Shown in pieces: positions 2,375-47,506 of a stretch of DNA of 64,000 nt. The DNA comes from Heptranchias perlo (lineage: Eukaryota). The position numbers were made by a program, and so were the translations under genes. The DNA is taken from contig NC_090351.1 in NCBI RefSeq assembly GCF_035084215.1, positions 16,988,001 to 17,052,000 of the forward strand, in the 5' to 3' direction. The notes beneath the pieces were generated by a model, which was given only the letters and a program-made list of their open reading frames with translations, made no database searches and was not told where the DNA came from. Every line of letters begins with the position of its first letter. The first letter of the stretch is position 1.

Positions 2375-2963
2375 GTGAGAACACGAAGTCTTTCCCCTAC
2401 ACTCCATCTGCCACAACACTGCCCCCACCCCACATCTCCTTCGGCACCGCCAACACTACTCTGTCACATCACCCTTCATACCCACTCAAACCCCATCCTC
2501 ATCTTACCTCCACCTACTCACCTCGCCAGTACTCATCCTGCCACTAACACGCGACCCAATCCTCATACAATCTCATTGCTCCATCCCATACTCACCCTCT
2601 CGTGCATCTCCCTCACGGCCAGCCTCACGCAACCTGCCACCACCTGTGCTGCAGCCACAGGGCATGCATCACATATGTGCAGTAGGCAGCGTAAGGCAAA
2701 TGTGTCGTGAGCATGAAGGGGGTGCACAAGGGTGTCTGAGGGTTTGTCCTGGGTGTTACCTATATTGAATTTCAGAGCAACAAACAGCACACATTATATT
2801 GACACCACCACTGCCATGTCTCCGCGAATCCTGTCCGTTGTGTCCAATAATGCCCGCTCCTGGGTATCACTATGAGGACCCACCACTGATGCCACCCATC
2901 GTGTTACTGCAGAGTAGGTGCAGGTGTATTTGCAGGGCTCTTCCGCGCAGACGACTGAGAGAC

Positions 2964-3341
2964 GGAGGAGAAGTTGTGGAGGGCAGTGGTGACTTTGACA
3001 GCGACAGGTAAGCAGTTGGTGCTGGGACCAGCCAGGAGCAGCTCGGCATGAAAGAGCCTGCAGATCTCCACGACTACATGTCGAGCGAATCTGCGCCTCC
3101 GTGTGCACTGCTGCTCGGAGAGGTCCGGGGAGCTGCGCCTCGGTCTGTGGACCCTGCGGCGAGGGTAGTGCCCTCTGCAATGCGTCTCTCCCTGCGGTAG
3201 CCCTCCCTCCCGCTGTGCAGGTGGGCGTGCAACAACACCGTGTTGGGGGGCTCCACGTCTCTGCGGCGGACGGCGTGGACTGCGAGGCTGCTGGGGCTGG
3301 TCATGCTGTTCGTCCTCCGAGGGTGTCCACGCACCACCCAT
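2964..3341 (-). pseudogene. HARBI1-like Harbinger transposase, N-terminal fragment
   Basis: Minus-strand translation YPRRRVHRPRRSSPDLSEQQCTRRRRFARHVVVEIC...LPVAVKVTTALHNFSS matches the N-terminal HTH region of HARBI1-type transposases; breaks off near 2964, before the DDE domain. Confidence 0.85.
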
Positions 3342-7341: not shown

Positions 7342-7472
7342 CAGTATATATTCAGTATATATATTTGGTATATATAGTCAGTATATATATTTGGTACATA
7401 TATTCAGTATATATATTTGGTACATATATTCAGTATATATATTTGGTACATATATCTAGTATATATATTTGG
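7342..7472 (+). repeat. 26-bp AT-rich minisatellite, left part
   Basis: About 5 tandem copies of CAGTATATATATTTGGTACATATATT. Confidence 0.95.
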
Positions 7473-8866
7473 AATTTATAGTCATTATGCTGGAGTCTAT
7501 AATTAAGGATAGGGTGACTGAACACCTCGAAAATTTTCAGTTAATCAGAGAGAGCCAGCATGGATTTGTGAAAGGTAGGTCGTGCTTGACAAATTTAATT
7601 GAATTTTTTGAAGAGGTGACTAAAGTAGTGGACAGGGGAACGTCAATAGATGTTATTTATATGGACTTCCAGAAGGCATTGGATAAAGTCCCACATAAGA
7701 GACTGTTAGCTAAGATAGAAGCCCATGGAATTGAGGGAAAAGTACGGACTTGGTTAGGAATTTGGTTAGCGAAAGGCGACAGAGAGTAGGGATAATGGGT
7801 GGGTACTCACATTGGCAGGATGTGACTAGTGGAGTCCTGCAGGGATCTGTCTTGGGGCCTCAATTATTCACAATATTTATTAACGACTTAGATGAAGGCA
7901 TAGAAAGTCTTATATCTAAGTTTGCCGATGACACAAAGATTGGTGGCATTGTAAGCAGTGTAGATGAAAACATAAAATTACAAAGGGATATTGATAGATT
8001 AGGTGAAAGTGCAAAACTGTGGCAAATGGAATTCAATGTTGGCAAATGGAATTCAATGTAGGCAAATGTGAGGTCATTCATTTTGGACCAAAAAAGGATA
8101 GAACAGGGTACTTTCTAAATGGTAAAAAGTTAAAAACAGTGGATGTCCAAAGGGACTTAGGGGTACAGGTACATAGATCATTGAAGCGTCATGAACAGGT
8201 GCAGAAAATAATCAATAAGGCTAATAGAATGCTGGCCTTTATATCTAGAGGACTAGAGTACAAGGGGGCAGAAGTTATGCTGCAGCTATACAAAACCCTG
8301 GTTAGACCGCACCTGGAGTACTCTGAGCAGTTCTGGGCACCGCACCTTCGGAAGGACATATCGACCTTGAAGGGAGTGCAGCATAGGTTTACTAGAGTGA
8401 TACCTGGACTTCAAGGGTTAAGTTACGAGGAGAGATTACACAAATTGGGGTTGTATTCTCTAGAGTTTAGAAGGTTAAAGGGTGATCTGATCGAAGTTTA
8501 TAAGATATTAAGGGGAATAGATAGGGTGGATAGAGAAAAACTATTTCCGCTGGTTGGGGATTCTAGGACTGGGGGCACAGTCTAAAAATTAGAGCCAGAC
8601 CGTTCAGGACCGAGATTAGAAAACATTTCTACACTCAAAGGGTGGTGGAAGTTTGGAACTCTCTTCTGCAAACGGCAAATGATGCTAGCTCAATTGCTAA
8701 TTTTAAATCTGATGTAGAAAGCTTCTTGCCAACCAAAGGTATTAAGGGATATGGGTCAAAGGCAGGTACATGGAGTTAGATCACAGATCAGCCATGATCT
8801 TATCAAATGGCGGAGCAGGCTCGATGGGCTGAATGGCCTACTCCTGTTCCTATTTCCTATGTTTCC
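7473..8866 (+). mobile_element. Young 5'-truncated CR1 LINE (RT and 3'UTR) nested in the minisatellite
   Basis: RT motifs SQHGFVKGRSCLTNL, DFQKALDKVPH, QGSVLGPQLF, KFADDTK, YKTLVRPHLEY; (TTCCTATG)-type tail; ATATATATTTGG on both flanks (7461-7472, 8867-8878). Confidence 0.95.
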
Positions 8867-16006: not shown

Positions 16007-17614
16007 AGAATCATAGAATTGTAGAAAGGTTACAGCACGGAAGGAGGCCATTCAGCCCATCGAGTCTGTGCCAGTTCTACGCAAGAGCAATCCAGCTAGT
16101 TCCAATACCCCGCCCTATCCTCATTGCCCTGCAAATCTTTTCCTTTCAAGTACTTATCGATTTCCCTTTTGACGGCCATGATTGAATCTGCCTCCACCAC
16201 CTTCAGGCAGTGCATTCCAGATCCTAACCACTTGCTGTGTAAAAAAGATTTTCCTCATGTCACCTTTGGTTCTTTTGCCAATCACCTTAAATCTACGTCC
16301 TTGGGTTCTTGACCCTTCTGTCAATGGGAACAGTTTCTCTCTTCTACTCTGTTTTGACCCTTCATGATTTTGAATACCTCTATCAAATCTCCTCACAACC
16401 TTCTCTATTCCAAGGAGAACAACCCCAGCTTCTCCAGTCTATCCACGTAACTAAAGTCCCTCATCCCTGGAATCATTTTAGTAAATCTCTTCTGCACCCT
16501 CTCTAAGGCCTTCACATCCTTCCTAAAGTGTGGTGCCCAGATGTGGACACAATACTCTTGTGGCTACAAGAGCAGGTCAGAGGCTGGGTTTTCTGCGGCG
16601 AGTGACTCACCTCCTGACTCCCCAAAGCCTTTCCACCATCTACAAGGCACAAGTCAGGAGTGTGATGGAATACTCTCCACTTGCCTGGATGAGTGCAGCT
16701 CCAACAACACTCAAGAAGCTCAACACCATCCAGGACAAAGCAGCCTGCTTGATTGGCACCCCATCCACCACCCTAAACTGTGGCTGCAGTGTGTACCATC
16801 CACAGGATGCACTGCAGCAACTCGCCATGGCTTCTTCGACAGCGCCTCCCAAACCCACGACCTTTACCACCTAGAAGGATAAGAGCAGCAGGCACATGGG
16901 AACACCACCACCTGCACGTTCCCCTCCAAGTCACACACCATCCTGACTTGGAAATATATCGCCGTTCCTTCATCGTCGATGGGTCAAAATCCTGGAACTC
17001 CCTTCCTAACAGCACTGTGGGAGAACCTTCACCACATGGACTGCAGTGGTTCAAGAAGGCGGCTCACCACCACCTTCTCAAGGGTAATTAGGGATGGGCA
17101 ATAAATGCTGGCCTCGCCAACGACGCCCACATCCCATGAACGAATAAAAAAAAAGTTGTGGCTGAACCAGTGTTTTATAAAGGTTCATCATGACTTCCTT
17201 GCTTTTGCACTCTATGCCTCTATTTATAAAGCCCAGAGTCCCGTATGCTTTTTTGACCACTTTCTCAACCTGCCCTGCCACCTTCAACAATTTGTGTACA
17301 TATACCGCCGATCTCTCTGTACCCCTTTAAAATTGTGCCCTTCAGTTTATATTGCCTCTCCTCATTCTTCCTACTGAAATGTAATACCTCGGATTTTTCT
17401 GTGTTAAATTTCATCTGCCATGTGTCTGCCGATGCCACCAGTCCATCTATATCCTCTTGAAGTCTATCACTATCCTCCTCACTGATCACTACACTTCCAA
17501 GTTTTGTGTCATCTGCAAATTTGGAAATTCCCTGTACACCCAAATCCAAGTCATTAATATATATCAAGAAAAGCTGTGGTCCTAGCACTGACCCCTGGGG
17601 AACACTACTGTACA
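16007..17614 (-). mobile_element. CR1 LINE 3' portion, split by a nested LINE
   Basis: Minus ORFs VPQGSVLGPQLFLIYINDLD..KFADDTKLG and KKAYGTLGFINRG..YKTLVQPQL; (AGAATCAT) tail at 16007; same subfamily as 52495-53463. Confidence 0.92.
16566..17154 (+). mobile_element. Poly(A)-tailed non-LTR retrotransposon 3' end (CR1-group, family unassigned) nested in CR1
   Basis: YKAQVRSVMEYSPLAWMSAAPTTLKKL..QDKAA; ends GAACGAATAAAAAAAAA; TTGTGGCT duplicated at 16558-16565 and 17156-17163. Confidence 0.92.
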
Positions 17615-17799
17615 CGTCCGTCCAGATCTCAGCAACAAAATAGCACAGCACATGCAAGCTTGACGCACAAACAGAGCTCTGCTTTCCATGCAGCTAATTT
17701 TTAATGTAAGTGAGAATGGCAGAAATGTTACTTTACTCAAAATGTTAACAAGAGTCAAAAGTATGTTTCTAAAATGTCAAGGACATCCAATGGTCACTT

Positions 17800-22038: not shown

Positions 22039-24333
22039 ATGGTCCTATCATGTCAATAGGACCACAATGGCATTTTAACCGGGGTCTGAGCAAATAAACT
22101 GCTGCTTCCCCCTTATGGTCCCTTCTGTGCTGTAAATGTTATGATTCTTGGGATGATGTAAAGTGATGGCATATAGAAAAATATACATTTACTTCACAGT
22201 TTGTGTAACCTCATTGGCAGTATAGGTAATTAAACTGAATAAAATAAAAAGCATCAAAAAAGTACAAGGAATAAAAACACTGGACTCATTGGTTTGTGTA
22301 GACTCTAATAAATTCTTCTGACATTTGTACTTTTTACACTAGGAGGCAGCACTGTCACATTATAAAGCACCCCCTGTAACTAGAGTTACAGGGTTATTGT
22401 ATCAAAATATGAACCATAAATACTTATTTGGAATAACTTATTAATGAAATCCAATAAACATAGTTTGAATCAGTAACAGTTCATGTCAATTTTATGCAAC
22501 TCTCCATATTCAGTGCTATTTGCACAGCAAAAAGTACTGAGGTAAAAGTCAGTCATTTTTGGCAGGTAAGTAAAATCTATCGCCCTGATTTTAACACAGC
22601 CCACACGGCAGGAACGTAGCGGACGGGGAGGGGCGGGGAGGGGTGGTGGTTATTAAGGATGTTGGGCAGGCAGAAGCCACAGCATTCCCGCACCTCCAAC
22701 AGTTTAACTGCCGGGATTCCGGCAGCATGGTGACCGCCCGCCTAATTAAAATGTGAATGGTGGGGCCCCATGATATCATCAGAGCTGTGTTGGGATTTTA
22801 CCTTAAAATCGCACAGCACCAAACCTGCCAGCAAAACCTGGTGGGAGGCAGCAGAGTGGCCAGAGGAGGTCAATTGTTGATATTTGGAAGATATGAACAT
22901 ATCCATTCATTGGCCTGTAAGATCTAAGTCATCACACCAAATCAAGCTAATTATATAACTAATACCACAATTATAGTAACTAAAGGTATATAGCGCCATT
23001 TACAGCTAGCAGAACCTAATTTATGTTGGGGGCTCCAGATCATACTCTGGGCAGTGAGAAAGCACTGCTCGTGTGGTACATTTTGAGATCACAGCTGAGA
23101 CTGCCTGCTTTTTCAAAACATTGAAAGCATTTAATGAAAAATTCTGCTAATGTCTATAAAGTGCTCACAAAGGCAAACTTTAAGCTTTTTTTAAGCCTGG
23201 CTGGAGACTGCACCGTCAAGCCAGGCGAAGAGAGACAGCTTCACAGAGGAAATCTTACCCCCAATATATTCCAGGGCCCCAGATTTGGCTCTGACTCTAA
23301 AGTTATACTATCACTTTTTTACCATTGCAATGAAGGAGCAACTTCACAGCAGCATAAAAATGACAGTATAACTGGACCTAACCCTTTTCTTACAGTTATA
23401 ATAGTCAGAAGAGTGGATCCTCCTCAGACTAGCCTAAAGTAGGAATGTCATACAGATGTGCAAAAAGTTCCCACTATCTATCAAAACACTAACCCTTTTG
23501 ATACCCCAGATGTTCCATCCTTCTCCATGGGAAGTGTCTGGTCTTTGCCTTGTGTCTTTTCTTAATTATACGGTAAAACCTCAGAATGTACAGGTGTGAA
23601 GCAACATCCTGCCTGCCTTTCTGTGCTGCAGTACACTCATATCCCACTATGCTGTGTCACAATACTGCCCATAGAGGGAGGGTTTCTACTATTTTCAACC
23701 TTAAACAAGTTAGCTCTTGCTGTGGAGCGTTGTGGTCTGTAGCGTGTTCTATCCATGTCCTGCTCCACTATCGCCCCTGTCCTTAACATTCTCCATTGGC
23801 CCCATCCCCCAATGAACTTAATTCAAAATCCTTGTCCTCATTAACAAATCCCTCCATGGCCTTTCCTCTCCCTATCCCTGCCACCACTTCCAGTCCTACA
23901 TGTCAGCATAAGATGAAAAAAAGCTCATGGCCTCCTCACACCTGATACTAGAGATGATGACGGGGGGCAGAGAAAGGAAGTCAGAGGAGGCAATTCGTTA
24001 TTGAGAAGAGGAATTTGGGATTGTCTTTTTCCTCCAGGATAATCCTGGAGCAGTAGAAGGATTAAAGCAAACTTTAATGACATATTTCTAAAGATAAATA
24101 AGGTACAATTACATAGTTTTAAATTTTCGGAAAATATGTTGTGGTCGGTTATTTACCAGTTTCGCTTTGCGGAAGTGGTTAATGCATCATTAAAAATATT
24201 TCATTGTTGAGATAATGCAGTTGCAACAAAAGTTGGTCATGGTATGTTAACAAAGAATATTTATTTCTAGCAGAAGGAAAATCATATTTGGTCTAGCATC
24301 ATAAATTACAAGGGGGCAAAAAAACCACAGACA

Positions 24334-25374
24334 CAGTGGTTGTTGGAGGCCAATCATCTCAGCCTCAGGACATTGCTGCAAGAGTTCCTCAGGGCAGTGT
24401 CTTAGGCCCAGCCATCTTCAGCTGCTTCATCAATGACCTTCCCTCCATCATAAGGTCAGAAATGGGGGTGTTCGCTGATGATTGCACAGTGTTCAGTTCC
24501 ATTCGCAACCCCTCAGATAATGAAGCAGTTCGTGCCCGCATGCAGCAAGATCTGGACACCAACCAGGCTTGGGCTGATAAGTGGCAAGTAACATTCGCAC
24601 CAGACAAGTGCCAGGCAATGATCATCTCCAACAAGAGAGAGTCTAACCACCTCCCCTTGACATTCAACGGCATTACCATCGCCGAATCCCCCACCATCAA
24701 CATCCTGGGGGTCACCATTGACCAGAAACTTAACTGGACCAGCCACATAAATACTGTGGCTACAAGAGCAGGTCAGAGGTTGGGTATTCTGTGATGAGTG
24801 ACTCACCGCCTGACTCCCCAAAGCCTTTCCACCATCTACAAGGCACAAGTCAGGAGTGTGATGGAATACTCTCCACTTGCCTGGATGAGTGCAGCTCCAA
24901 CAACACTCAAGAAGCTCGACACCATCCAGGACAAAGCAGCCCGCTTGATTGGCACCCCATCCACCACCCTAAATATTCATTCCCTTCACCACCGGCGCAC
25001 TGTGGCTGCAGTGTGTACCATCTACAGGATGCACTGCAGCAACTCGCCAAGGCTTCTTCGACAGCACCTCCCAAACCCGTGACCTCTACCACTTAGAAGG
25101 ATAAGGGCAGCAGTCACATGGGAACAACACCACCTGCACGTTCCCCTCCAAGTCACACACCAGTCCGACTTGGAAATATATCGCCGTTCCTTCATCGTCG
25201 CTGGGTCAAAAACCTGGAACTCCCTACCTAACAGTCCTGTAGGAGAACCTTCACCATACTGACTGCAGCAGTTCAAGAAGGTGGCTCACCACCACCTTCT
25301 CAAGGGCAATTAGGGATGGGCAATAAATGCTGGCCTTGCCAGTGACACCCACATCCTATGAACGAATAAAAAAA
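24334..25374 (+). mobile_element. Poly(A)-tailed non-LTR retrotransposon 3' 1 kb (same family as 16566-17154)
   Basis: VPQGSVLGPAIFSCFINDL, FADD, LGVTIDQKLNWTSHI; tail GAACGAATAAAAAAA. Confidence 0.93.
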
Positions 25375-27017
25375 GTCTTTCTGGCACACTCCATTGGGAG
25401 TGAGCAAGAAGGACTGAAAATCAGGTTGGGACCCAGATATGCCATGTTGCTTGCCGAACATTGGGATTTCCACAGGAGGGGGCAGGGCTCGGTACTCCCA
25501 CATCCCCAGCCTCTCAATTGGTGGGGGCAGGATCACCAATCAATACACCTGGTTAGACCAGGTGTCCCAGGCCACCTGAGGGCACATGTGGGCCCTACCT
25601 GAGAATCCGGGCTGGAATTGTGGCTTTGAATCCTAAAGGACAAGCAAGTTTTTTCATTATTATTATTTAAATGCAGCCCCCTTGTACATGGGGCATCTGG
25701 GGCAATCTATACTTCTTTGGAGCAGTCTGATGACCCCCTCCCAACTAGCCAACATTGCACTGCAATTTGTGGTCTCCTCAGAATACGGATGCCCTAGATG
25801 TGCCCCCTGTAATGTGGGCACTCATCAATGGTAGGCTAATTAAAGGACCTCTCCCTGACTTGGCAAAAATTAGCAGGGTCAGCGGCAGAGGTCCCGGGCA
25901 GGTGCATCCTGGGTCTTACATCAGGATGTAACCTCTCACAGATATTTCTCCCTGAAATGCAGCGCACAAGGTTCATTGTATTTCAGTGGGTTCTATTACT
26001 TTCATTTTCAAAGTCTGAGGCACAAGTAAGAAATGACAGTGAAAAGGTTTCAAATGTGGTTTTTTCAAGGGAACATTTAAAATCACTAATAATTGGATTC
26101 TGACAATTAGACTGCCAGATATTAGATGGATGTTTACCAGGCCTTCCCTCTCTGAAATGTCTGGACCATACTTGCATGCCCACCATGAGATCTTCATGAT
26201 CTGATCCCATTCATTAGACTGTCAGCAATCAGTCCCCCCCACCATATACCTGGATCACATGAAAATATGGACACTAGATATTAGGATCAGATATCCCCAC
26301 ACGAGACTGCCATGGATCAGCCTCTCCCATTCTACCAAGGATCAGATGGATGCCTACCCCCCCAAATGCTAAGAACATATCAACCACAAGGCTGCCCAAG
26401 ACTGGTAGATTGCTATTCAAGGAAAAGTCCAGGCTGAAATGACACCAGAGGCTGTTTCTCCTGGGTGTAGTTCTTACCTACTTTGTGTACTGAGCTGATT
26501 CAGAAGTTCTTGTCACTTTCTGTCATTAAGAAACTGATGGCCAAACACTGATAAATGTATGTCATTTTCACCAGAGCGAGTCACCATTTGCAGTAATGGG
26601 CAAAAGATAATTAAATGAAAAGAAAATAAGTCAGAGGAATCATATATACACTATTTGCAGCCTGTCCATATGTCTCAATTGGCATTTGATTATTTTTTGT
26701 AGTTGGTTCTTTTGTTAGAACTTGAACTCTAGCAATTTGATGCTGCCGTTCTCATTCATTTTGTGCTATTCATGATTGTTGTCTGTCTGGCTCATATTCC
26801 ACTTGTCGGTAGACACCAAAGGACAGTCTTTTTCATTTTATTTCTGAAGCATGTGATAGAAATGCGATCACTTCTGGATAATTTAATCAAAAATTCTAAC
26901 ATACTAATCAAACACCTCTGCCCATCAATAAAGATGTGGAGATGCCGGTGATGGACTGGGGTTGACAATTGTAAACAATTTTACAACACCAAGTTATAGT
27001 CCAGCAATTTTATTTTA

Positions 27018-27062
27018 AATTCACAAGCTTTCGGAGATTTTCTCCTTCCTCAGGCAAATGTT
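27018..27062 (-). ncRNA. Minimal type I hammerhead ribozyme motif (mirror copy)
   Basis: Exact reverse complement of 27354-27398. Confidence 0.7.
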
Positions 27063-27353
27063 TCAAGATCTCCTTGAAGCCTACGCATTTATACATATTG
27101 AACAATAATAAATGGTGTTTACAGACTGCCTCTGCAACTGCCCGTTGCCAAGGCAATCACCGTGTTCAGACAGAGAGGTGTTACCTGCAGAACCTCCGAA
27201 TCCTCTGAATGTGTATTCGGAGGTTCTGCAGGTAACACCTCTCTGTCTGAACACGGTGATTGCCTTGGCAACGGGCAGTTGCAGAGGCAGTCTGTAAACA
27301 CCATTTATTATTGTTCAATATGTATAAATGCGTAGGCTTCAAGGAGATCTTGA

Positions 27354-27398
27354 AACATTTGCCTGAGGAAGGAGAAAATCTCCGAAAGCTTGTGAATT
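27354..27398 (+). ncRNA. Minimal type I hammerhead ribozyme motif
   Basis: CTGAGGA (27363-27369), A, stem II GGAGA-AAA-TCTCC, GAAA (27384-27387), palindromic AAGCTT in place of stem III; weak stem I ATTTGC/GTGAAT with two G-U pairs. Confidence 0.7.
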
Positions 27399-28114
27399 TA
27401 AAATAAAATTGCTGGACTATAACTTGGTGTTGTAAAATTGTTTACAATCATCAATAAAGAGATTAAAAGAGAACTCTCCTGAATGCAATTAAGTGTAAAC
27501 AGGGATTGAAAGGTAACTTGGCATTTTAGTTTTCCTATAACAGATGAATTTTCAAGATAGAGAACTAGATTACATTGAAATAATTTAAGTCATATTTTGT
27601 ATTAATTTATTACAAACTTAGAAGAACCAAATTTGCAGATAATTAATATGAAAGATGTAAACTTAATGAATGCCGATAAAGGTTTAGAGTAATAAAGGAC
27701 TAACAACTGTATTTGCTTGATATGAAAAGTGCCAGCATTGAACAACTGCAACAAAGTGTGGATATTTGTCTGTGGTGAGTTTTTATCTTGTTTATCTTAT
27801 TATTAGTACACACAGGGTTAGGAGAGTCAGAGGTAGATATTTTTGACAAGATGGAGACAATTTACATTAGCATTTAGCAGGAAAAAGGGGTCACTTAAGA
27901 TGCATTATTTCTCAGAAGCATTTTATGACACTTTTCTTCTTAGTTGTGCTCTATTTCATTTAAAATTTGGTTACAATCAGGCTACACAGTCTACTTAAGA
28001 TAGTGATTATATTTGGGTGGACAAACATTCCAAGTAATTGTTAGCATATGAATGGTTATTAATGTAATGTAATTAAAAGATACAGTTGTCCACGGTCTTT
28101 TGTTTCAACATAAC

Positions 28115-29576: not shown

Positions 29577-30713
29577 ATGACCTATCCACTCGGTATTCCA
29601 CTATTATTGATCATCATGGACGACATAGAGGAGCAGCAGAGGAAGCAGGAGCATCGAATGAGGCACCATGGCTGGAGGGTGAACAGATATCACTACTATA
29701 ACCCCTCTAGAGTGTATAGGGAATGGGTGTCTTTTGAGGCACTGTCGGAGGAACTCCGTGTTCACAAACTGCGCTTCAGCACGGAAGCTATTGACCGCCT
29801 GTATGAAATGCTCCATGAGGTCCTGAGGCCACGGTCTACCTCCTGCAGGGCCTTGTCAGTGGCAATGAAGGTGATGATGTCCCTCAATTTCTATGGGTGC
29901 AATTCCTTCTAGGCAAGCACTGTAACATCAGCCAAGATGCCATGAGGACTTGCATTCACAGGTCACACATGCCCTATTTCGCAGGTACAGGGAACATGTT
30001 GTACTTCTCATTAAGTACAACATGTCTCTTGCGCAGCAAAGGGGCAGGTCCATCAATTTCCATAGGATTGCTAGCTTCCGCAGGGTACAGGGGGCCAGTG
30101 GTGGGACCCATGTGTTGCTGAAGGCTCCACTTGATGAACCGGTCACATTTATCAATAGGAAAGGTTATCATTCCCTCAATGTCCTAATTATCTGTGATGC
30201 CCAATGGAGGATCCTGCTCGTTAACGCAGAGCATCAGGGAAGCGCTCATTTTGCCTTTGTTCTTTGCCACTCCAACATCCATGACTTGTTCAGCAGTGAG
30301 GGAGAAGGAGGTGGATGGATTGTAGGGGACAAGGCTTACCCACTGAAGCCATGGCTGATAACACCCTTCTGCCTAACCAAAAACGCAGCACAGGCAAGGT
30401 ACAACTATGTACACATCTCAACCTGGCAAGTGCTGGAGAGGACAATTGAGTTGCTTAAATCACAATTTCAGTGCCTGGACAGGTTCTATAGCATTTCACT
30501 AGCAAAGTGGCAAAGATTGTAGTGGTCTGCTGTGCACTGCACAACTTTGCCCTGCAGGAAGGACTGACACTTAACTCAGCAGACAAGATGCCTGTGGAGC
30601 CAGAGGATCCTGACCCTGGGTCCGTGGGTGGTGGCATCCCGGAGGAAGGCATGGCGGCAGTGGCCAGGGTGGCCAGACAGCAGCTGGTAGCTCAGGTATT
30701 TGGACAATGGTAG
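29577..30713 (+). pseudogene. HARBI1-like DDE transposase, frameshifted
   Basis: Three consecutive ORFs (29577-29912, 29950-30522, 30507-30713): RVYRE..LRFS..ALSVAMKV, VQGASGGTHV, FINRKGYHSLNVLIICD, GSAHFAF, GDKAYPLKPWLITP, YN..H..VLERTIELLKSQFQCLD, IVVVCCALHNFA. The GAIDGTH and GS.HD aspartates are substituted. Confidence 0.93.
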
Positions 30714-35409: not shown

Positions 35410-36930
35410 GATTCAGAACAGATCTAGCAGCTCAAAACTAGGCATCCATGAGGCGCGGTGGGCCTTCAGCAGCAGCAGAATTGTATTCCAGCACAATCTG
35501 TAACCGCATGGACCAGCATATTCCTCATTGTACCATTACCAACAAGCCAGGGGATCAACCCTGGTTCAATGAGGAGTGTAGAAGAGCATGCCAGGAGCAG
35601 CACCAGGCGGACCTAAAAATGAGGTGCCAACCTGGTGAAGCTACAACACAGGACTACATGCATGCTAAACAGCAGAAGTAACATGCTATAGACAAAGCTA
35701 AGTGATTCCACAACCAACAGATCAGATCAAAGCTCTGCAGTCCTGCCACATCCAGTCGTGAATGGTGGTGGACAATTAAACAACTAACGGAAGGAGGAGG
35801 CTCCATGAACATCCCCATCCTCAATGATGGCAGAGTCCAGCACGTGAGTGCAAAAGACAAGGCTGAAGCGTTTGCAACCACCTTCAGCCAGATGTGCTGA
35901 GTGGATGATCCATCTCGGCCTCCTCCTGATAACCTCACCATCACAGAAGCCAGTCTTCAGCCAATTCGATTCACTCCATGTGATATCAAGAAACGGCTGA
36001 GTGTACTGGATACAGCAAAACCTATGGGCCCTGACAACATCCCGACTTTATTGCTAAAGACTTGTACTCCAGAACTAGCTGCGCCTCTAGCCAAGCTGTT
36101 CCAGTACAGCTACAACACTGGCGTCTACCCGACAATGTGGAAAATTGCCCAGGTATGGCGTGTCCACAAAAAGCAGGACAAATCCAATCCGGCCAATTAC
36201 CACCCCATCAGTCTACTCTCAATCATCAGCAAAGTGATGGAAGGTGTTGTTGACAGAGATATCAAGCGGCACTTACGCACCAATAACCTGCTGACCGATG
36301 CTCAGTTTTGGTTCCGCCAGGACCACTCAGCTCCAGACCTCATTACAGCCTTGGTCCAAACATGGACAAAAGAGTTGAATTCTAGAGGTGAGGTGAGAGT
36401 GACTGCCCTTGACATCAAGGCAGCATTTGACCGAGTATGGCACCAAGGAACCCTAGTAAAATTGAAGTCAATGGGAATCGGGGGAAAACTCTCCAGTGGC
36501 TGGAGTTATACCTAGCACAAAGGAAGATGGTAGTGGTTGTTGGAGGCCAATCATCTCAGCCCCAGGACATTACTGCAGGAGTTCCTCAGAGCAATGTCCT
36601 TGGCCCAACCATCTTCAGCTGCTTCATCAATGACCTTCTCTCCATCATAAGATCAGAAATGGGGATGTTTGCTGATGATTGCACAGTGTTCAGTTCCATT
36701 CACAACCCCTCAGATAATGAAGCAGTCTGTGCCCGCATGCAGCAAGACCTGGACAACATCCAGGCTTGGGCTCATAAGTGGCAAGTAACATTCGCGCCAA
36801 ACAAGTGCCTGGCAATGACCATCTCCAACAAGAGAGAGTCTAACCACCTCACCTTCAATGGCATTACCATCGCCGAATCCCCCACCATCAAGATCCTGGG
36901 GGTCACCATTGACCAGAAACTTAACTGGAC
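35410..36930 (+). mobile_element. Internal ORF2/RT segment of the poly(A)-tailed non-LTR family
   Basis: PWFNEECRRA, GPDNIP, NPANYHPISLLS, DAQFWFR, ALDIKAAFDRVWHQG, GVPQSNVLGP, FADD; truncated at both ends. Confidence 0.92.
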
Positions 36931-37347
36931 CTTTGCTCAAAAAACTATTTAGCAGTTTCCAACATGCACCCACTTCTAAATTTTGGAGAAAGGAAGTGCT
37001 GCGAGATGCATATCAAATGAATTCTGGGATTTGGTTGCCTAGGAAACTGCTAAAGCTAATTGGTTCTTACGGGAAAAACGTTGCAATGTTCTTTTAAATT
37101 GTTGCAGCTGGCAAATGACACTTACAATAATGAACAATTTCTACCCTCTTTGTTCAGCAGGTATGTCCGAGCACTAAGGAGGCCTACATGCTTTTACATT
37201 TTGGAACCCAAATACCAGAAAAAAAAATCTCGTTTTCATATTGATTGTCCACGAATATTTATTAAGGAAATGTAGAGTACAGGACAAATTAAGCAGAATT
37301 ACTATTTTAAAGTCTTTTAAATCAAACAAAAAGTGTTCGCAGAGGCG

Positions 37348-46965: not shown

Positions 46966-47110
46966 GCAGCAGACTAGCACAGATTGGAGGAGGGGGAGAG
47001 AGAGAGAGAGAGAAATAAAGAAATGAACTAGAAAGATCCATCATCCCAAGTTCTTAGCACAGCTAACATTACAGTGAAAGGGAAGAGTGTCCGAATCACA
47101 ATCAGACAGC

Positions 47111-47506
47111 ATGTCTGAAATGAATGGTCAAAACATCCTAAAGGAAGGGTTGTTGGAGAAAAGGAGCGACGGCTTGCTGCAGCTGTGGAAGAGGAAAAAC
47201 TGCGTCCTGACAGACGAAGGACTGTGCATCCACGACCCGAAAACAAGTCGATCGAAATGCAAGGTGCTGCCCTTTGAAAACATGAAGACGGTGGATTGCG
47301 TGGAGAGGAAAGGCAGATATGTCTATTTCACCATCGTGATGGCAGATACCAAGGAAATCGACTTCAGGTGCCTGGAGGACACGACGTGGAATGCAGAGAT
47401 CACCCTGGGGATGGTGCAGTTTAAAAACCGTCAGGCGATCCAGTCTGTGAAATCCAGACAGCTGGCGCACATCTGCACGCCAACAGCCATCAGCACAATG
47501 TCCTGA
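47111..47506 (+). CDS. PHLDA3: Pleckstrin homology-like domain family A protein, 131 aa, most likely PHLDA3
   Basis: [60 protein letters not shown] are PHLDA signatures; ATG 47111 has A at -3; short, with no polyQ or PQ/PH repeats, which favours PHLDA3 over PHLDA1. Family call is firm; paralog call is less so. Confidence 0.9.

Follow-up and report, generated by a model that had tools for sequence, protein, structure and literature searches.

Insertions of endonuclease-positive (EN+) Penelope-like elements (PLEs) typically include an inverted, 5'-truncated copy and a 30-40-bp tail on one side only (Craig et al. 2021, PMC8557442; Arkhipova et al. 2013, PMC3846280). In vitro, the purified protein of a PLE from Anolis carolinensis cuts and extends both target strands; reverse transcription (RT) starts at two sites bracketing the tail, the protein is predicted to be a dimer, and insertion proceeds without a need for hammerhead cleavage (Frangieh et al. 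2024, PMC11167929). A 2014 study reported dual minimal hammerheads on opposite strands, spaced about 100-700 bp apart, the minimal motif itself having been located with a custom descriptor (PMC4209133), and non-LTR retrozymes have been described as head-to-tail tandem repeats (bioRxiv 10.64898/2026.07.22.740005).

The locus studied here lies in a 64,000-nt stretch of Heptranchias perlo DNA (NC_090351.1, 16,988,001-17,052,000), referred to as the window, in whose coordinates its features are given. Like canonical complex insertions of EN+ PLEs, it combines a head-to-head inverted pLTR, a tail at one end, a target-site duplication (TSD) within the usual range of about 9-13 bp, a palindrome at the inverted junction and a TATA motif in the pLTR. 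Unlike them, both of its arms are reduced to the pLTR, with no ORF sequence left, and its tail ends at the start codon, whereas that of the rotifer and Anolis elements ends inside the ORF. The spacing of its twin hammerheads, 334 bp start to start, falls within the range given in PMC4209133. With non-LTR retrozymes it shares its non-coding nature, its origin from a PLE pLTR and a type-I hammerhead; in contrast to their head-to-tail repeats, its two arms lie on opposite strands around a unique junction. The locus is an ordinary truncated copy in the known head-to-head PLE layout rather than a novel type of mobile ribozyme element. It is almost certainly a head-to-head insertion, with double 5' truncation and dead on arrival, that derives from an active EN+ PLE.

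Anatomy and reality of the insertion

The original prediction described a perfect fold-back with terminal extra sequence, a TSD and outward-reading motifs, and this anatomy was largely confirmed. The arms (26968-27201 and 27215-27448) are 234 nt each and are reverse complements without mismatch, with 13 nt in between. The left arm has 33 additional nt (26935-26967), and the 514-bp insert is flanked by an identical 12-mer at both sides (26923-26934 and 27449-27460). TATAAAT, CTGAGGA, GAAA and AATAAA begin at 27323, 27363, 27384 and 27402, as had been claimed, and the insert has no credible ORF, its longest ATG-started frame being 61 codons. The supposed 13-nt spacer has that length but is not pure spacer, consisting of 4 nt of filler (27202-27205) and 9 nt of element sequence (27206-27214). 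As these 9 nt belong to the right arm, the arms are actually 267 nt (tailed) and 243 nt (tail-less) long. Reference positions are those of the natural copy L033, numbered from its ATG; the left arm including the 33 nt corresponds to L033 2819-3085 on the minus strand (3087 counting the 2 nt in common with the TSD). The features are as follows.

26923..26934, plus strand: left TSD copy, 12 bp; its last 2 nt also match the element 3' end (microhomology)
26935..26967, minus strand: PLE 'tail' of 33 nt, or 35 nt if the microhomology is counted; directly precedes the ORF start codon in tandem copies
26968..27201, minus strand: tailed arm, 5'-truncated pLTR, 100% identical to L033 2819-3052
27019..27059, minus strand: minimal type-I hammerhead motif of the tailed arm, mirroring 27357-27397
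27087..27093, minus strand: TATAAAT of the tailed arm, mirroring 27323-27329
27202..27205, no strand: junction filler, 4 nt; with the following 5 nt it makes an imperfect 9-nt tandem copy of the left arm end
27206..27448, plus strand: tail-less inverted arm, 5'-truncated pLTR, L033 2810-3052; holds the GAAT-GTGT-ATTC mini-palindrome
27323..27329, plus strand: TATAAAT, probable element promoter, judging by the many copies whose 5' ends lie 7-33 nt past its first base
27345..27350, plus strand: AGATCT palindrome, a family turn-around hotspot at 179 other loci, unused at this insertion
27357..27397, plus strand: minimal type-I hammerhead; stem I 27357-62 with 27392-97, stem II 27371-75 with 27379-83; core CTGAGGA, bulged A, GAAA, palindromic GC; predicted cut after 27391
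27402..27407, plus strand: AATAAA, upstream of both putative RT start sites; copies of the element lack a terminal poly(A)
27449..27460, plus strand: right TSD copy, 12 bp, identical to the left copy

Evidence for the integrity of the site came from short-read runs. In runs X5 and X8, from two other organisms, an orthologous empty site was found in which the 12-mer is present once and is then followed by the right flank (in X5, 27 of 30 loose letters match the window from 27461 onward, and likewise in X8). As each of these organisms has one 12-mer at that site, the TSD is real. Run X1, possibly from the assembled individual itself, has a 1,602-nt contig that crosses out of the left flank and takes in 18 nt of the tail; the filled left junction is all that this run reveals. 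An assembly fold-back artefact would account for the perfection of the arms and for the absence of the central junction among the short-read pieces listed. However, both flanks are unique, the empty sites and the X1 contig speak for a genuine insertion, and the tail asymmetry is the norm of the family, which leaves an artefact with next to no likelihood.

Elsewhere in the window, a Pfam scan of 77 of the 103 frames of at least 90 codons gave nothing besides pieces of RTs, a DDE transposase and a single frame with a PH domain. The fragments of other retroelement RTs and the single DDE_Tnp_4 fragment lie at 7460-8058 (+), 17268-17693 (-), 24297-24791 (+), 35901-36949 (+) and 29926-30519 (+). The PH domain (47078-47506, plus strand; Pfam E = 2.6e-6) occupies a single frame 20 kb from the insertion, which resembles a PHLDA-family gene.

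The parent element and its hammerhead

A search of the genome (3.25 Gb) with the insertion gave 2,329 candidates, 40 of which were scored; among these, most top copies match the 33 nt and the left arm at 99-100% and then extend into a longer body. In 20 longer stretches, a 3,086-bp unit with a single long ORF was found in partial tandems, the 3,086-bp period being seen in L032-L036, where the partial tandems form pLTRs. The ORF encodes 902 aa, and its ATG directly follows the 33-nt piece. It matches RVT_1 (E = 3.3e-10), with DKG and YIDD motifs, and its C-terminal part matches GIY-YIG (PF01541) at E = 3.9e-4 and 21.1 bits, below the Pfam cut-off of 22.6; a Pfam scan of the whole protein gave no GIY-YIG match. 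Inspection by eye identified the endonuclease residues VVY...YIG with two cysteines between them and later R, H, E and N (CCHH-type GIY-YIG), and PF01541 is carried by many homologues of the ORF. The autonomous RT and GIY-YIG partner sought by the original prediction is therefore present as a full-length element in the same genome. Both arms are its 3' end (pLTR) at 100% identity, which bears out the proposed Penelope relationship and the reading of the locus as a single Penelope integration product.

A CX4CX2C linker at residues 753-761, situated between RT and EN, fits the CX2-5CxxC of Neptune and Nematis PLEs; the motif does not tell Neptune from Nematis. In contrast to these, the targets examined here are mostly AT-rich ordinary sequence and not microsatellites. 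Sharks provide the closest named proteins (93-95% for Heptranchias perlo and 85% for Scyliorhinus torazame), with no named reference PLE proteins among the protein matches, and a PDB search gave one uninformative match (E = 0.86). One named shark protein model (an epn2 isoform) contains a stretch 95% identical to the parent ORF and is either an annotation chimera or an exonised copy. Six intact full ORFs, in five loci, are 0-3 residues apart. The genome holds 6,910 copies of an exact 39-nt stretch across the hammerhead and 689 copies of the exact tail-ATG junction; an exact-pattern count along the element, 8,143, takes in sister subfamilies and is not comparable. From its sequences, the family is a young one and is probably active. 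No paper on it was found in the open-access literature, and it is possibly unnamed so far. Sister subfamilies that are 80-97% identical share the inverted-plus-tail layout and carry hammerhead variants of their own (L009, L018, L020, L034, L043, L056, L059 and L110; for example L020:2717-2943).

A minimal-hammerhead descriptor gave two matches in the window, one in each arm, against a mean of 0.03 in 100 shuffles. The motif has the core, stems I and II and, like the type-I minimal motif of PMC4209133, a bulged base after A9, G10.1-C11.1 and palindromic 15.2-16.2; it differs from the published motif in its stem II of 5 bp and its stem I of 6 bp with two G-U pairs. The core positions and minimal-motif traits thus support the predicted hammerhead, whereas a match to Rfam models was not obtained, the scan of the insertion finding no hammerhead family at E <= 10. 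The other Rfam matches, hairpin-driven miRNA and weak snoRNA or other families, were all below gathering score. In the local minimum-free-energy fold both stems form, and longer context displaces stem I. Among 10 variants from sister subfamilies, in an alignment omitting four junction-truncated ones, the core is unchanged save at N7, stem cells are paired at 99.1% (19-49% in slid controls) and two pairs are changed on both sides; the stem covariation score was reached by 34 of 500 shuffles, the aligned rows being related.

Minimal hammerheads are thought to act as dimers. Dimer folding in cis, by comparison with published minimal hammerheads, is impossible in the inverted layout of this locus. 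As one transcript would contain one motif together with its complement, fully paired in the predicted fold, the hammerhead would be buried, and its activity at this locus is unlikely. The insert is predicted to fold far more stably than expected (z = -52.7; 0 of 100 shuffles equally stable). The earlier claim that a read-through transcript would form long dsRNA with a ribozyme motif in each polarity is accordingly upheld for the predicted long fold and not for the ribozyme, since the sense hammerhead is buried by its complement in any one transcript. The idea that the hammerhead cut is a truncation hotspot was not supported: none of the first 50 fold-backs listed near the predicted cut joins exactly there, 36 of them joining on the adjacent AAGCTT and 5 having 1-2 nt between.

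Inverted insertions and their junctions across the family

The tail asymmetry of the locus recurs throughout the family. Among 55 inverted pairs at 54 of 120 loci, the longer end lies at reference 3086-3089 in all 55 and the other end at 3049-3058 in 52; this is a selected set, drawn from the top matches in BLAST, from matches to patterns and from pairs taken in order of position, with both ends past reference 3020, and the end positions include some BLAST overshoot. In an unselected sample, the first 100 exact hammerhead matches on contig 1, there were 27 head-to-head pairs within 7 kb versus 2 tail-to-tail. Fourteen of the 27 are no more than 700 bp apart, three of these belonging to a 15.4-kb repeat. 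Most TSDs measure 12-13 bp (12-16 with microhomology at 14 of 15 loci examined at AGATCT), and copies end without poly(A). One tailed arm, one head-to-head tail-less arm and a TSD of about 12 bp are the normal product of this family. The repeat on contig 1 (15,341,335-15,372,217) contains one short fold-back three times with a 15.4-kb period; either a segmental duplication in tandem took place after the insertion, or the repeat stems from the assembly.

The two arms of a pair are related in sequence and often in length. At reference position 2889, a variant position, both arms are concordant in 29 of 29 pairs (17 G/G, 12 A/A), and 8 pairs have arm-common variants found nowhere else in the pair set. 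Outside the main hotspot, 12 of 29 pairs have 5' ends within 20 nt of each other, where 10,000 shuffles gave 1.2 on average and 6 at most; when four short pairs chosen by pattern are left out, 8 of 25 do (0.8 on average in shuffles). Concordant variants and near-equal 5' ends together point to one template source for both arms. Variants common to both arms could also arise from successive single-source bursts or from arm-to-arm conversion. The arms in the window equal the master sequence and are therefore uninformative on the number of templates. Arm lengths across the family range from about 90 to more than 2,700 nt; the longer arm may be tailed or tail-less, with a difference of up to 1.9 kb. 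Differences between arms are mainly in poly-T length (8 pairs), were seen in near-equal and unequal pairs alike and may be assembly errors, and they were discarded as a means of discriminating twin priming from fold-back.

In 12 of the first 30 position-ordered copies, the 5' end lies at reference 2934-2960, just past the TATAAAT at 2927. Either run-off at the transcription start or a local hairpin would explain this cluster, and the 5' ends of the copies suggest that TATAAAT is probably the element promoter. Of the 100 hammerhead matches on contig 1, 43 also carry the exact 27-mer of the TATA region, a figure partly lowered by variants.

The original prediction had offered, as an alternative to a single integration product, membership of a non-coding, retrozyme-like mobile family. 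The exact junction, however, occurs once in 3.25 Gb, at the window itself, and the insertion is thus not a member of such a family; the widely varying arm lengths and the head-to-tail organisation of retrozymes contradict this proposal further. With a gapped pattern, four fold-backs were found to turn at this site, namely the one in the window, one on contig 3 with a different junction, and two on contig 6 (L053 and L054). The latter two are of nearly the same size and have an identical clean joint on the natural GAAT-GTGT-ATTC, two subfamily variants in common and different TSDs. Turn-arounds occur at AGATCT, just upstream of the hammerhead, at 179 loci, and at AAGCTT, beside the predicted cut, at 99 loci, in both cases with filler variants; the AAGCTT pattern also occurs in sister subfamilies. 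The AGATCT fold-backs (L106-L120 and 164 more loci) are about 280 bp long, and the AAGCTT ones (L121-L123 and 96 more loci) are shorter still. The centre is identical in 34 of the first 50 AGATCT fold-backs listed, and TSDs differ in the 15 examined.

Other junctions contain fillers of 12 to about 107 nt (L087, L091, L075 and L089), those of L075, L087 and L091 being repeated copies of nearby element sequence. Such fillers resemble the templated insertions of microhomology-mediated repair. At L093:457-4283 (contig 2, about 21,272,856-21,276,682) there is a head-to-tail array of about 9.5 units of 404 bp within one 13-bp TSD, each unit consisting of pLTR 2812-3089 and the first 128 nt of the ORF and including a hammerhead. 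This array matches what is defined as a non-LTR retrozyme, here derived from the present family through a single insertion, and its unit junction, at 2812, is at the same site as that of the window locus.

Formation of the fold-back and its meaning

The best explanation overall, that the locus is such a PLE insertion made from two nicks and two RT start sites, is considered fairly probable. The RT/GIY-YIG protein would nick both target strands, 12 nt apart. The 3' end of the top strand (26934) would prime cDNA at the distal start site, the end of the tail (reference 3085-3089), and that of the bottom strand (27449) would prime a second cDNA at a proximal site (reference about 3052). Both cDNAs would copy the RNA of one source element, probably one molecule, and would stop at 2819 and 2810, just 3' of a U-rich tract. 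Their ends may then anneal via the GAAT/ATTC mini-palindrome after a short templated slip, host repair filling in the rest. With two primers at two start sites, the expected product is precisely one arm with the tail and one without it, placed head to head within the TSD. The product would have no ORF and no mobility of its own, its hammerhead and TATA motif being passengers of the pLTR. Support for these steps comes from genomic patterns and from in vitro work on a different clade (Poseidon). The family resembles Anolis Poseidon in its AT-rich targets and its two putative RT start sites; in Anolis, however, these lie at least 111-118 nt into the ORF, whereas here they are just before the ATG, and in the text covered of the Anolis study (PMC11167929) the inverted structure is not derived from the two sites.

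A parallel exists outside PLEs. In LINE-1 twin priming, a further cDNA is started from the second target strand, and the outcome is a 5' inversion within the TSD with a microhomology joint. The process proposed here would likewise involve a second-strand-primed cDNA and an inversion in the TSD; in LINE-1 the segments cover different parts of one RNA, whereas here both cover the same part, from two fixed sites. No paper linking PLE inversions to twin priming was found in the main texts of the open-access literature.

The closest competitor is self-priming, in which a strand folds back on the mini-palindrome and copies itself, the tail being gained or lost in resolution; it has been proposed for rotifer Penelopes, there on an antisense template (PMC3846280). 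Joints located on palindromes, arm-common variants (locus-unique in 8 pairs) and near-equal 5' ends would all follow from it. However, self-priming from the tail predicts the loop in the tailed arm, whereas the tail-less arm has it here, in L053 and L054 and in most near-equal pairs; many pairs are unequal by hundreds of bases in either direction; and a second priming event that supplies the tail would still be required. Self-priming is judged unlikely.

Appreciably less probable is the shortening of a longer inverted insertion after integration, by deletion at the centre of an unstable palindrome. Deletions at the centre are a known fate of long inverted repeats, and these would yield coupled 5' ends and short fillers. 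Against such a deletion, the same end points occur in non-inverted truncated copies (L056, L062, L071, L080 and L084), the tandem junction of L093 uses the same site, and arms without divergence from the master leave little time for it. The idea that the fold-back itself is mobile, as a MITE- or retrozyme-like non-autonomous unit that the PLE enzyme copies anew, draws on the shared joint and variants of the two contig 6 loci and on the identical centres of AGATCT fold-backs with their differing TSDs. Palindrome-guided joining also yields identical centres, however, AAGCTT giving a second set (36 of the first 50 listed); many filler variants exist at each palindrome, the outer ends vary as in long copies, and the junction in the window is unique. 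A mobile fold-back is hence very improbable, marginally more so than central deletion.

A more specific form of the two-nick, two-start-site mechanism, held tentatively and at somewhat less than even chances, is that a dimeric RT-endonuclease makes two overlapping cDNAs from one RNA molecule at two fixed start sites, joined at short palindromes. If this is true, a one-RNA, two-primer reaction would cover PLE inverted ends, the one-sided tail, coupled truncation points and many twin-hammerhead minis, most of which would have run off where pLTR transcription starts. No statement of such a reaction was found in the open-access literature. How the tandem and inverted structures of PLEs and the tail originate was still called undefined in a 2021 paper. 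The locus itself is inert, one of thousands of copies, and its layout has been known since at least 2013-2014. The AGATCT fold-backs are the best place for asking whether a fold-back can re-mobilise, and fold-backs that are read through are, from the predicted folding, potential sources of long dsRNA. As the family is very young and has many inverted insertions, it provides a test bed for how PLE inversions form.
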